Below, piece after piece: positions 51,238 through 56,679 of a DNA stretch of 64,000 nt. A program made the translations under genes and the position numbers. This DNA comes from Cladosporium halotolerans (taxonomy: Eukaryota), in assembly GCF_011745625.1 (NCBI RefSeq), contig NW_027191454.1, forward strand, positions 558,001-622,000, written 5' to 3'. The notes under the pieces are model-generated. The model saw only the letters and a list, made by a program, of their open reading frames with translations, searched no databases and was not told the origin of the DNA. Numbering within the stretch: the stretch's first letter is position 1; every line of letters begins with the position of its first letter.

Positions 51238-52437
51238 GATGTCTGAAGCAGTATCACAGCAATGATAGATGGAAGGTGAAAGGAAACAGCTCAATGATGG
51301 AGTGAAATAGTGTTGCCTACGCTTATGCGCACGCCATGCCTACGAGCCGATGACGACTACGACACGGCGGTCCGGCAGGACAGAGCTCCGTCCTCCACGT
51401 CTTCGGTGTTGCGAACGCGAGGGCAGCGCCATCTCGGGTTTCAGTTAATGGTGGTCTGGGATCCATTGCTCTCTGGTATGGAGGCTGTCGCAGTCGCTGC
51501 TGGGAAAATACAAGTTTCTTGATTTCTGTTAGGGCCGAGCGTCCATTCAACTCAACAATAGTTGCGAATGGTTACTGTTTGGAGCGAAGAGGATCATGAC
51601 ATCAGAGCCTGTGGATGCAGACATCGTTTCTCTCGCCTTTTGAGAGAGAGAGCTGCAGGCGAGTCGTTCGAGACACATGCTGACCCTTTGAACCGTTGGT
51701 CGATGGTGTTAGTTGGCCAGCCCCAGGGCCATTGGTTTCAATCCAACAATTCAGACATGTCCTGCACCATTCACCTTCTTTCGTATTCCTCGGTCGATCA
51801 GCAAATGATCAGTAGCATGCGTGAAACGCCAACGGACGAGCACGGATGTGCCAAGTGTGATCCCCCGGAGCCAAGGCGAGCTGGTGCATCAGCGTGGTCT
51901 GAACATATCGCGGGGCAAGTAAACACCGTGCCTGAAATGTTTATACCGTGATGTCCATCAACGGATACCAGATCACGATAATCGGACCTTTCATGTCGTC
52001 CTCGGTCCCACATGCTGCATCTCCGCGCTGGGTAGCCTGAAGCCTGCCATTCGTCATAGCAGCGGAGGGCGGCGGATCAAGCTCTCCGTCCCAGCCGAGC
52101 GAGACCACCCAAATGCTGGCCGACCACGCCAACCACGCAGCTCTTACGGCACGGCCATACACTGCTCACCTCCTTGCGTAGGCTGATCCACCGCTCTCAC
52201 CCGCATCTTCGTATGCTCTTTGTCACGCTTGACGTCAGCCTGTGGTCCCCAATGGTCTATTCACGGTAGTCGCGGTGCGTGAGAAGCATCTGATCTTAGA
52301 ATGGATAAGTACAAACAAACCGACTCCCCACCTTCCCAGCTCTTCCACACCTCAATTGCCCTCACAACCTGCCGTTGACCCTCAATTGCCGTCCACTTTC
52401 TTTGAAATCAATCTCGGCAAAACTCACTTAACCCAGC

Positions 52438-54223
52438 ATGGCCGGACTCGCACGCCACGTCGATCCCGACGAGGTCATTGCCCGCCTCCACGAGCACCCT
52501 CATCTCGCCCACCGCGCGAAGCATCGCAGCACTGTCTCCAACCTCACACCCTACAGCAGCCGCTACAATGCCCAAACCGAGCTCTCCAAGTACCGGATCC
52601 CGCAGGCCGGCGCGCCTGCCGACGCCGTGCACGAGATGCTCAAGGACGAGCTTGATCTCGACGGCCGACCCAACCTGAACCTTGCGTCGTTCGTCGGCAC
52701 CTACATGGAGCGCGATGCCGAGGCGCTCATGGTCGAGAACCTCAGCAAAAACTTGGCCGACGCCGACGAATACCCTGCCATGATGGACATCCACGCTCGC
52801 TGCATCAGCATGATCGCCCATATGTGGGGCGTGCAGAAGGGCGAGAAGGCCATTGGGTCTGCTACGACGGGCAGCAGTGAAGCGATTCACCTTGGCGGTC
52901 TGGCGATGAAGCGTCGCTGGCAGGAGAAGCGCAAGGCCGAGGGCAAGGACACTTCGAAGCCGAACATCATCATGGGCGCCAACGCGCAGGTCGCGCTGGA
53001 GAAGTTCGCCCGCTACTTCGAGGTCGAGGCTCGTATTCTGGATGTCTCGGCGAAGAGCTCCTACCGCCTTGATCCGGAGCTCGTGAAGAAAAACATTGAC
53101 GAGAACACTATTGGTGTCTTCGTCATCCTCGGAAGCACCTACACTGGGCACTACGAGCCTGTTTGGGAGATCAACGATATCCTCGATGAGTATGAGAAGA
53201 AGACTGGTGTTGATATCCCGATCCATGTGGATGCCGCGAGTGGAGGTTTCATTGCGCCTTTCACAAACGCGCAGGTCGGAGGACACAAGTGGAACTTTGA
53301 GTTGCCTCGAGTGAAGTCGATCAATACGTCCGGCCATAAGGTAAGTTCAACATGTTCTCCCGCACTGTTGTCCGTAATTATCACGGTCCACTAACGTCGC
53401 TGTAGTTCGGTCTCGTCTATGCCGGCGTCGGCTGGATCGTTTGGCGCGACGAAAGCTACCTGCCCAAGCACCTGATCTTCGAGCTTCACTACCTGGGCGG
53501 CACTGAAGAATCCTTCACCCGGATTCTTCACCCTCAACTTCTCCCGCCCTGGCGCCCAAGTCATCGCGCAGTACTACAACCTGATCCACCTCGGCTTCGA
53601 CGGCTACCGCGCGATCATGGAAAACAGCCTCGCAAACGCCCGCCTGCTCAGCAAATCGCTCGAAGCGACAGGCTGGTACCGCTGCATCAGCGACATCCAC
53701 CGCCCCAAGGGCCAGATCGAGTACAAGCCGGGCGAGTACTACGAGGGCAATGACGGCGAGACCTCCGCGGACTACAACGCCGGCCTCCCCGTCGTCGCCT
53801 TCACGCTCACGGACGACTTCAAGCAGAAGTTCCCGCACGTCAAGCAAGTCAGCATCTCAAACCTGCTGCGCGCGAAGCAGTACATCATCCCCAGTGAGTA
53901 GTCCCTTCCCACCCGCCCCTCGCACCCCGCCGCTAACAAACGCCGCAGACTACCCCCTCCCGCCCAAGGAAGAGGGCACGGAGATTCTGCGCGTGGTGGT
54001 GCGCGAGAGCATGTCGCTGGACCTGCTCGACCGACTGATCACGGACATCTTCGCGGTGACGGAGAGTGTGATGAACAGCGATGCGATCGACCTGGGCATC
54101 TGGCAGCCGTTCCAGAACAACAACAGCACGGAGAAGGAGCACAGCAGCGCCGGCGCCAAGTCGCACGAGAAGCACAAGCACCGCCAGCCGATGGAGAAGG
54201 GCGTGCACAGGACGGTGTGCTAG
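52438..54223 (+). pseudogene. GAD1: Glutamate decarboxylase (PLP-dependent) with an apparent +13-nt frameshift at 53521-53533; exons 52438-53340, 53406-53893 and 53949-54223
   Basis: LDGRPNLNLASFV, KNLADADEYP, TTGSSEA, HVDAASGGF, PLP lysine INTSGHK|FGLVYAG, and NYPLPP..LRVVVR. The conserved GGTEESFTLNFSRPG is split by an inserted GGATTCTTCACCC. The gene identity is secure, but pseudogene versus assembly error is unresolved. Confidence 0.75.
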
Positions 54224-54366
54224 ATTGTCGGTGTTGGGATGGTTCACGAGCGACAATGATGGGTTTGCAGATGTAGTAATGAAAAAGGCGATGCAAGCGT
54301 AAATGGGTAATAGTTTTAGTGTTGGGACATTTCTCTTTCATTTCTCACGTTTGAAGTCGTTTGTTC

Positions 54367-56679
54367 CTAAAAGCTGCCGCTTTCGAGCACCTCGTCTTCG
54401 GCCTCCGCCTTGGGAGCCTTCCTGGGGTCGTCTCTCGCCAGCAGCACTTTGGTATCTTCCCTCTTGCCCTCAGTGAGGTCAATCCCGCTGTCTCCATCCC
54501 CTCCACTCAGCATCCCCGGTCCACCCTTCTTCGCAAGCTCCTTGTCGTAGCTGCTCGGGTCAATGCCCAAAATGCCGCCGACATTATTGCGGTCGCCCGG
54601 CACAGAGAACTCGCGGAAAGCGTACCGCCACTCGGTCAAATACTGACGAATCGCCTTGCCGACCTTGTCCTTCCCGTTCTTGCTGTGGTGCCCCGTGCCC
54701 GTGATGGCGTACACCGGGCGCGCCGAGGCCTTGTGCTCCTGCAGGCAGTCGGAGAGGTACGCGACGGCCTCGTCGGCGTGCAAGCCGTGCAGGTCGACGT
54801 ACAGCTCCTTCTGGCGGCCGTCGGCCGCGGCCAGCAGCTTGTTGCGCTCCTCGTACAGCACGCGCGCGGCCTCGCGGTGGGCCTCGCGCATGAGCGCGTT
54901 CTCGTTCTGACCGCGGAGGGAGAGGGCTTTGGCGCCACGCGCGTCGTTGCGGTTCCAGGCTTGCGCCGCGGACTGCAGGAACTTGTTGCGCAGGCCGCCG
55001 TGCCGGACGGCGTCGGAGCGCGCTTTGAGGTACGCACGGTTGACGTTCTCGCCCGTCTCCAGCCAAGGGATATCTTTCGGGGGTGGGATGGCGAGGGAGG
55101 CGGTGCCGTTTTCGCGGGTCGAGGTGAAGCTGCGGTTGTTGCGGAGGCCGCGGCGCATGGCTTCGCGGGAGTTGGGGTTTGAAGGCGCGGGCGAGGGGCT
55201 CATGCGCACGACGTCCGCGAGGGATCCGGGCTGTGGAGTGACGATCGCGTTGTTGTTGTGGTGGCCGTGTCCGCCTCGCTTGCCGTGATGGCGTTTCCCG
55301 GGTCTACTAGCAGCAGCAGATCCGAGGGAAGGAAAGGCCTCGTCGTCGTTGAAGTTCGGCTGAGACCCTGGGGTAGGTGCTCTGGAATTATGTCTGCTCC
55401 CAGGGCGAGATGCTGGTAGAGATTGATTGCGCGGCCCCGTCGGGACAAAGTTCGGGAACAGGCCTGGCGGAGCGGCGGCAAAAGCCTGCTGGTTCTGCAG
55501 AAGGACAGCACTGATAGTCTGCGGGTCTACTAGGGGATCCGTGTCTTCGTAGGGATTGCTAGTCTGCGGCTGCAAAGATGGGAAACTGTCGTAGTCCTGG
55601 AGTTGGAGATTGGGTGGTACTTGCTGAGGCGTGCCGGCTTCGCTGTTGCTGTTCGTAAGAGACAGCTGCTGCATCATCGCTACCGGGTCATGCGAGAACT
55701 GGCAGAGATTGCCTGCAAGACAGTTTCCCTGCAGCCAAAACTTGCAGACGTGGTTCTCGAGGGTGTGAGCAAAGCGACAGTCAGCGCGAGCGCAGTGGCC
55801 CGACGAGAGCCAGTAGCGGCAAACGATTGGGGACTTCTGCTGGCCGACTGGAGTGATCGGCCGGGAAGAGGGAGACATGCTTTTGCCGACCAAATACGTG
55901 TGACTTTGCTGCTCCTGTCCTGCCGCTCCGGTAACGCCTGAATCTTGGGCCTCCATCAGGAAGTTGATTGTCTGGCTGAGGTCATAGCCGTTGGCCTCCA
56001 GTATCTTTTCCAACTCATCGTCGCTCCTATTGTCCTGCAAGATGGAGCGAAGCATGTCGTAGGGGCTCATGTCTGTCGTGTAAGGTTGCATATACTCTGA
56101 CGTGCTTGTGAAACCAGCGTCACCGAAGCTCGTGTTGCTGCTGGTCTCGTCATTGACGAGCCAGTCCACATTGTCGCTGCCGTAATCGCCATAATTTTCG
56201 GTCGTGGGCGAAGAATCACTGAATTGGTAGATACTAAGCCTCGGTGAATGTGGGATTGCTGGCGTTGAGATCGGAAGTCGAGGCGAAGGCTTGGGCGAGG
56301 TGAAGGGAGAGGCAGTCGAGCTCATAGTACGGGCAAGCGCAGGCGGCTGTGGTCCCAGGCCCGGAGGTGGGCCCGGGGTGGCATTTGCAGGGCGCGGCGA
56401 GCCAGCATTTGAAGGCGTACTCGCGCGCTGCAACCAGGGAGCAGGCGAGCGCGAACGGATGATGTTCGCACCGCGCATGGTCTGAGGACTCGTTGTCTTC
56501 TCCTTTGCGCCCTTCCATCTCCACAGCGCGCCCAAGACAGCATCCTCCAGGGCTTTGCCCTTCAGCGAAGCAGGCTCACTGCTCAGCAGTTCCTCCAACT
56601 TGTCTGTCTTCTCCTCATCTCCCAGGTCGTCATCGTCCAGCACAGGCTGGCAAAGCTCGTATATCCGGTCGGACACCAT
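54367..56679 (-). CDS. CCCH zinc finger / CUE-like / DUF1771 / Smr-domain protein (putative RNA endonuclease)
   Basis: Two CCCH fingers (CRYWLSSGHCARADCRFAH, CKFWLQGNCLAGNLCQFSH), a CUE-like helix bundle, DUF1771-like AAQAWNRNDARGAKALS, and Smr motifs VDLHGLH and ITGTGHHS. Confidence 0.88.
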   Translation of the reverse strand: MVSDRIYELCQPVLDDDDLGDEEKTDKLEELLSSEPASLKGKALEDAVLGALWRWKGAKEKTTSPQTMRGANIIRSRSPAPWLQRASTPSNAGSPRPANATPGPPPGLGPQPPALARTMSSTASPFTSPKPSPRLPISTPAIPHSPRLSIYQFSDSSPTTENYGDYGSDNVDWLVNDETSSNTSFGDAGFTSTSEYMQPYTTDMSPYDMLRSILQDNRSDDELEKILEANGYDLSQTINFLMEAQDSGVTGAAGQEQQSHTYLVGKSMSPSSRPITPVGQQKSPIVCRYWLSSGHCARADCRFAHTLENHVCKFWLQGNCLAGNLCQFSHDPVAMMQQLSLTNSNSEAGTPQQVPPNLQLQDYDSFPSLQPQTSNPYEDTDPLVDPQTISAVLLQNQQAFAAAPPGLFPNFVPTGPRNQSLPASRPGSRHNSRAPTPGSQPNFNDDEAFPSLGSAAASRPGKRHHGKRGGHGHHNNNAIVTPQPGSLADVVRMSPSPAPSNPNSREAMRRGLRNNRSFTSTRENGTASLAIPPPKDIPWLETGENVNRAYLKARSDAVRHGGLRNKFLQSAAQAWNRNDARGAKALSLRGQNENALMREAHREAARVLYEERNKLLAAADGRQKELYVDLHGLHADEAVAYLSDCLQEHKASARPVYAITGTGHHSKNGKDKVGKAIRQYLTEWRYAFREFSVPGDRNNVGGILGIDPSSYDKELAKKGGPGMLSGGDGDSGIDLTEGKREDTKVLLARDDPRKAPKAEAEDEVLESGSF

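Follow-up and report, generated by a model that had tools for sequence, protein, structure and literature searches.

A recent templated insertion disrupts one of two glutamate decarboxylase genes in Cladosporium halotolerans and probably marks a transposon excision

The glutamate decarboxylase locus and its 13 extra nucleotides

All coordinates given here refer to the window, i.e., the whole 64,000-nt stretch of DNA that was analysed (NW_027191454.1, positions 558,001-622,000 of the forward strand; Cladosporium halotolerans assembly GCF_011745625.1). The plus strand carries a fungal glutamate decarboxylase (GAD) gene composed of three exons. Exon 1 (52438..53340) comprises 301 codons, matches PF00282 with an E value of 1.3e-40 and is 77-84% identical to fungal GADs; its last residue is the PLP-binding lysine of an SGHK motif that aligns with the solved GADs. 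Intron 1 (53341..53405, 65 nt, GT..AG) is followed by exon 2 (53406..53893), which bears the insertion, and intron 2 (53894..53948, 55 nt, GT..AG) by exon 3, which runs to the normal stop (53949..54223) and is left untranslated in the insertion allele. Read with an X at the break, the gene gives 551 positions and is 81% identical, over 549 aa, to the Zymoseptoria GAD P0007.

Alleles were compared in four runs (X1, X5, X2 and X15) of the 20 public runs that contain the stretch or part of it, using assembled contigs, which drop rare variants, and not raw reads. X15 is an RNA run; X5 and X2, whose library type is unrecorded, are taken as RNA because they are spliced. Intron 1 is removed in the contigs of X5 and X15, intron 2 in those of X5, X2 and X15, and exon 2 is unbroken in X5. 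The plus-strand 5′ leader (52307..52437) begins at the 5′ end of an independent transcript, the X15 contig, whose 21-nt loose end at 52307 we take to be a cDNA template-switch adaptor. Compared with this adaptor-like end, X5 and X2 reach further upstream, to 52074 and 52000, and the differing ends possibly reflect two transcript starts or read-through. On the other side, the GAD RNA contigs (54223-54824) enter a convergent CCCH zinc finger/DUF1771/Smr gene on the minus strand (54367-56679), so that the 3′ ends of the two genes overlap or nearly do so.

Exon 2 is interrupted by 13 extra nucleotides (53521..53533). The initial annotation described them as an inverted copy of adjacent sequence forming a 10-bp hairpin with a 7-nt loop, and its coordinates proved exact. 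The 10-bp left arm (53504..53513, plus strand), which is the template of the filler and contains the first half of a natural 5-bp quasi-palindrome, is separated by the loop (53514-53520) from a right arm (53521-53530) that is its perfect reverse complement. The same 13 nt can be read in another way, as an 8-bp direct repeat (copy 1 at 53513..53520, a candidate target-site duplication; copy 2 at 53526-53533) flanking a 5-nt inverted filler (53521-53525). The initial annotation noted a duplication of TTCACCC, but the direct repeat is in fact 8 bp long and lies around the filler; the two introns went unmentioned there. Five of the eight repeated bases can be explained by the inverted copy, so that the duplication strictly needed is only 3 nt. 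The first two bases of the filler mirror the last two of the flank.

The search for further scars covered 664 kb of the 27.9-Mb genome (2.4%). The combined signature, a direct repeat of at least 7 bp with filler within an inverted copy of at least 9 nt, is found a single time in these 664 kb of contig, at the GAD site, and in none of five Markov controls of 664 kb each; it exceeds what chance produces. Six coding-frame switches are found in the same 664 kb, the GAD site being the only one without a possible intron. Neither of these two scans, nor the comparison of repeat copies, yielded a second footprint: among loci of this genome, 296 kb of aligned repeat copies contain 10 insertions of 5-25 nt, with a direct repeat longer than 4 nt in 0 of them. 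As DNA, the hairpin folds at -11.3 kcal/mol (z -4.6), a stability equalled in 0 of 200 shuffles. The hairpin by itself is nonetheless not exceptional, because the window holds six perfect inverted repeats with arms of at least 9.

The 13 nt are present in both the DNA and the spliced RNA of the isolate. The X1 contig, which is unspliced and may come from the source run of the genome assembly, covers all 3,001 nt with 0 differences and carries them. X5, from the same sample as X1, and X2, from a different sample of the same study, are both spliced and both read through the site without a gap, the 13 nt included. In these three carriers, the 13 nt are flanked by more than 31 letters on each side, 0 other differences are seen, and none of the contigs listed lacks the insertion. 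X15 belongs to another study; its 1,903-nt contig has both introns out, exactly 13 nt missing and 0 other letters changed. A second uninterrupted form, the transcript-type protein P0274, differs by one residue. Among the related loci, the site is uninterrupted in 79 of the 79 that could be read, an 80th (L107) being excluded since its match ends at a contig end. When JGI metagenome contigs were searched with an exact 29-nt string for alleles from the same species, 0 matches were returned. The allele is young, because the exons are otherwise identical to X15, and its carriers are so far limited to the runs of one study. These data agree with the earlier description of a very recent frameshift in an otherwise intact gene, since X15 differs by the 13 nt only, and the comparison with other strains suggested at that stage has produced two forms without the insertion, X15 and P0274.

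Two functional interpretations were tried and rejected. An IRE1-type unconventional intron should leave the RNA, yet the 13 nt are kept in both spliced contigs (X5 and X2), and a conserved recoding signal is ruled out by X15, which lacks the 13 nt, together with the 79 uninterrupted loci. As a separate observation, no listed contig of X2 covers 53214-53478; the next one starts at 53479, its first 30 nt ending at 53508, inside the left hairpin arm.

hAT families in the genome

PF05699, the hAT dimerisation domain, has 37 matches in the genome. Two hAT families, each with terminal inverted repeats of 20 bp, are represented by stand-alone collapsed contigs. Family A (3,139 bp; G000:C202 and C193, i.e., L034 and L036, with contig ends L119-L144) has a 903-codon open frame with PF05699 and falls into several subfamilies of 88-95% identity. 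Family B (2,619 bp; G000:C236, i.e., L037, with contig ends L145-L170) has a 784-codon open frame with PF05699 and about 12 copies with identical ends; its exact translation is absent from the protein collection searched. The ends of both families recur at contig breaks (27 pattern matches for A, 29 for B), and 24 of the 24 contig-end copies of family B show 0 mismatches over ~98 nt. Pairing of the flanks recovered 7 family A and 11 family B sites, all 18 with a perfect 8-bp duplication, and left unpaired 8 of 22 flanked ends for A and 2 of 24 for B. A third hAT candidate (C219) was set aside for having no paired ends.

At seven of the 18 paired sites, the element interrupts an open frame that encodes a non-transposase Pfam domain, in each case past a Met. 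The split frames correspond to a transketolase paralog, a polyketide synthase, an NB-ARC protein, a methyltransferase, DUF6590, LicD and DUF3723; two further paired sites are in retroelement frames, and the Pfam scan on which these assignments are based covered 19 of the 36 flank pieces. For family B, 6 of the 11 paired sites are in open frames with host-type domains. Families A and B are young and hit genes. Individual family B copies split a transketolase-family gene (L148/L164; G000:C46 start and C507 start), besides which two other transketolase-like genes, at 50% and 36% identity, stay in the genome; a polyketide synthase frame with acyltransferase and dehydratase domains (L165/L160; G000:C580 end and C300); and an NB-ARC frame, ~20 codons past its first Met (L149/L145; G000:C46 end and C1 start). 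Family A has one copy within a copia-type frame and another within a DUF3723 frame. In the literature searched, which mostly excluded subscription papers, no account was found of transposons in Cladosporium halotolerans, of hATs in this species or of the GAD allele.

Origin of the scar

The insertion allele is recent, deprives one of the two GAD paralogs of its function and most likely, although with limited confidence, arose as the repair scar of a cut-and-paste transposon in exon 2. Repair routes were enumerated as single-step, fully templated routes for duplications of 0-11 nt. A plain break offers no such route, and neither do duplicated ends that lack palindromic bases; an Ac-type hairpin with a 1-nt offset gives no solution for duplications of 0-11 nt, falling short by a single base. 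When a flush hairpin is placed at 53520 and opened to one or two G, the junction is solved for duplications of 3-11 nt; 8 nt is the sole length that requires no trimming and uses the full 5-nt microhomology, while a duplication of 9 bp also works if 1 nt is trimmed. In the corresponding course of events, transposon insertion would duplicate 53513-53520, and excision would leave the left end capped by a hairpin, whose opening would add one or two palindromic G. Paired with the CC at 53512-53513, these could serve as a primer for snap-back synthesis along the left flank; the extended end would then anneal by 5 nt to the right-hand copy before being sealed. The footprint is favoured because the genome contains young hATs with 8-bp duplications, because a templated route exists that needs a flush hairpin, and because 8 nt is the optimal length. 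Against it stand the negative outcome for the Ac-type palindrome with its 1-nt offset and the shortness of the palindromic primer, only 1-2 nt. No allele with an element at the GAD site is present in the four runs compared, out of the 20 containing the stretch or part of it.

Comparison with known systems helps to define which type of excision could be involved. Like the hAT footprints of Ac/Ds and TcBuster (PMC5873905, PMC3499496), the GAD site combines an 8-bp duplication, an inverted flank copy and junction microhomology, and the genome harbours young hATs with 8-bp duplications and open transposase frames; the 8-bp direct repeat at the GAD site would be the duplication left at the empty site, 5 of its 8 nt being ambiguous with the inverted copy. 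In Ac footprints, according to PMC5873905, palindromes are centred on the complement of the border base. The GAD site, in contrast, keeps the border base, its true palindrome is just 2+2 nt, and its inverted arm lies 7 nt away from the template. The scar is not classed as an Ac-type hAT footprint, because the defining offset palindrome was looked for and is absent. Nothing specific on hAT footprints in filamentous fungi was found in the literature searched.

By its organisation, the scar seems to work like hairpin-end repair with snap-back filling. In Drosophila, snap-back SD-MMEJ uses primers of 1-2 nt less than 10 nt apart (PMC5728401). The GAD site shows the same placement of an insertion within a new inverted repeat (10-bp arms, 7-nt loop) by the break, primer repeats less than 10 nt apart, a primer of 1-2 nt and, given duplicated ends, a new 5-nt microhomology. 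It differs in needing a hairpin-derived primer and 8 bp common to both ends: the inverted primer repeat at the 3′ end is absent in the plain sequence and amounts to 1-2 nt only if hairpin-derived bases are assumed. A flush hairpin on flanking DNA is known from the MULE Muta1, with 43+43 = 86 nt, duplications of 8 or 9 bp and precise excision in more than 90% of events (PMC5499845). Both the flush flank hairpin and a 9-bp duplication with 1 nt trimmed would fit the GAD junction; the differences are that Muta1 excision is mostly precise and that no MULE transposase was found in the genome. A MULE origin was rejected, loose searches of a possibly incomplete genome having returned 0 matches for PF10551, 0 for PF04434 and 1 for PF03101, on a 1-Mb contig.

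More specifically, and as a speculative proposal that we regard as unlikely in its full form, a hAT of this genome may resemble RAG and Muta1, and differ from Ac, in nicking flush with its own end, and the break may be mended by snap-back templated repair without evident polymerase theta. A-family DNA polymerases have one match in the genome (G000:C217:321858-322574, within a 1,216-codon frame), which is presumably the mitochondrial enzyme.

A course that involves no transposon is plausible but less likely. A nascent strand, during replication or break repair, would switch strands at the natural 5-bp quasi-palindrome, copy 10 nt backwards and re-anneal by a 5-nt microhomology a few bases upstream, corresponding to a four-point event of type 3-2-4-1 or, in an alternative form, to two rounds of synthesis-dependent end joining. 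Indeed, the uninserted allele already has a 5-bp stem and a 4-nt loop that supply the return microhomology, and one four-point event gives the letters exactly, with no 1-nt discrepancy and no unseen element required. The target preference of the hATs is uninformative in this respect. Position 1 of the duplication is T in just 1 of 36 symmetrised A+B sites; against the target profile, which is weak (18 sites), the GAD site scores between the 51st and 82nd percentile with 0-3 flanking bases and between the 38th and 98th with 8, and other registers score as high as that of the 8-bp repeat.

The letters agree with four-point template switching (PMC5453318) in that one neighbouring inverted segment accounts for the entire change. 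However, one of the two switches would occur without primer pairing on either strand, the plain break having no solution in the enumeration. The order of events, with the return before the switch point, also departs from what has been recorded: in PMC5453318, switches producing an inverted plus a direct repeat (point 4 before point 1) are absent among 794 human-chimp events, a survey restricted to fragments of at least 14 nt, compared with 10 nt at the GAD site. The observed type, with point 1 before return point 4, fails at the GAD site, where the return lies 3-8 nt ahead of the switch. Finally, template switching would turn the mirrored filler bases and the exact 8-bp repeat into coincidences, in a genome with young 8-bp hATs. 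Excision footprint and template switching, two of the three mechanisms named in the initial annotation, are both still candidates, whereas the third, library fold-back, conflicts with the three runs that carry the 13 nt.

Product of the allele, the second gene and implications

The frame shifts after native residue 339 and reaches a premature TGA at 53751..53753, as annotated initially; this stop lies 140 nt 5′ of the last exon junction, and the product has 416 aa, of which the first 339 are native, out of 551. The uninterrupted protein P0274 resembles the group II PLP-dependent GADs (E 4.9e-76 against E. coli GadB, 1pmm; E 1.6e-99 against Arabidopsis GAD1, 3hbx) and has both the SGHK and the LNFSR motifs. 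The insertion allele retains the PLP lysine motif and homology to solved GADs; unlike group II enzymes, it has no complete large and small domain in one frame, its native sequence ending at 339/551. Alignment with E. coli GadB places the last native residue opposite position 314, directly before NFSR; from the conserved LNFSR motif on, the remainder of the large domain and all of the small domain are lost. The product of the insertion allele is very probably inactive, as judged from GAD structures, because the lost parts hold substrate and cofactor contacts. Nothing specific on fungal GAD paralogs or on the roles of GadB residues was found in the literature searched.

A public protein model, P0266, is derived from DNA with the same 13 nt and regains the frame through a 70-nt intron on the plus strand (53439..53508), with which it can be reproduced; no such joint is found in the RNA contigs, and the intron skips 23 conserved codons. 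P0266 masks the frameshift with a false intron. That the frame is recovered through this intron, through a different cryptic splice or through ribosomal frameshifting, so that the gene would not be null, is quite improbable. It is true that the 53439-53508 segment is bounded by GT..AG and that its removal brings back the frame, that the mutant RNA, which is spliced, has a high contig depth (depth not serving here as a measure of RNA level or nonsense-mediated decay), and that a contig break in X2 falls near the site. However, X5 is unbroken over 53404-53893 with the two normal joints only, the 70-nt joint is seen in 0 of the 4 runs (contigs drop rare forms), and the splice would cost the protein 23 residues, among them HYLGGTEES, a stretch identical in 76 of the 79 related loci; the two independent transcript forms without the insertion (X15 and P0274) likewise argue against a conserved recoding signal. 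Least of all do we believe in an assembly error, as contemplated in the initial annotation, or a library fold-back artefact, a reading that is largely refuted: X1 is possibly the assembly's own run, X1 and X5 share one sample and X2 the same study, and the comparison rests on contigs, but the same 13 nt occur in three runs that were assembled separately (two spliced, one unspliced) and represent two samples, no contig without them is listed in the carrier runs, and 664 kb contain no second such scar.

Initially, the allele was taken to mean loss of the entry enzyme of the GABA shunt, which was an overstatement. The search for a second GAD paralog proposed with it led to L002, an intact gene of 518 aa with 47% identity to the broken GAD, whose middle exon is a 100% match to the Cladosporium halotolerans protein P0124, possibly not independent of this genome. 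With this intact paralog in the genome, the production of GABA is not necessarily lost, and L002 may keep it going. Zymoseptoria tritici also has both GAD classes (P0007/P0243 and P0126). A third gene with the PLP-decarboxylase fold, L003 (G000:C89:175523-179083; 28% identity), looks to us like a sphingosine-phosphate lyase.

Altogether, the insertion is real and has recently turned one GAD paralog into a null allele; the isolate carries young hATs that split genes, and the scar is probably that of a transposon excision. Templated micro-insertions are already known, as are excision scars, and the GAD site adds one more example of an inverted, templated micro-insertion that shifts a reading frame; it is an ordinary kind of mutation with little general import. 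In practice, the public model P0266 gives a 531-aa glutamate decarboxylase for what is a null allele. As a natural single mutant, the isolate could be used to separate the roles of the two GAD paralogs that other Dothideomycetes keep as well. Young hAT families split several host genes in Cladosporium halotolerans, and their excision chemistry is directly testable. If a flush-nicking hAT did produce the scar, the isolate would amount to a strain mutagenised by transposons in nature, its host genes being split by an ongoing hAT burst that also leaves null footprints hidden by annotation pipelines.
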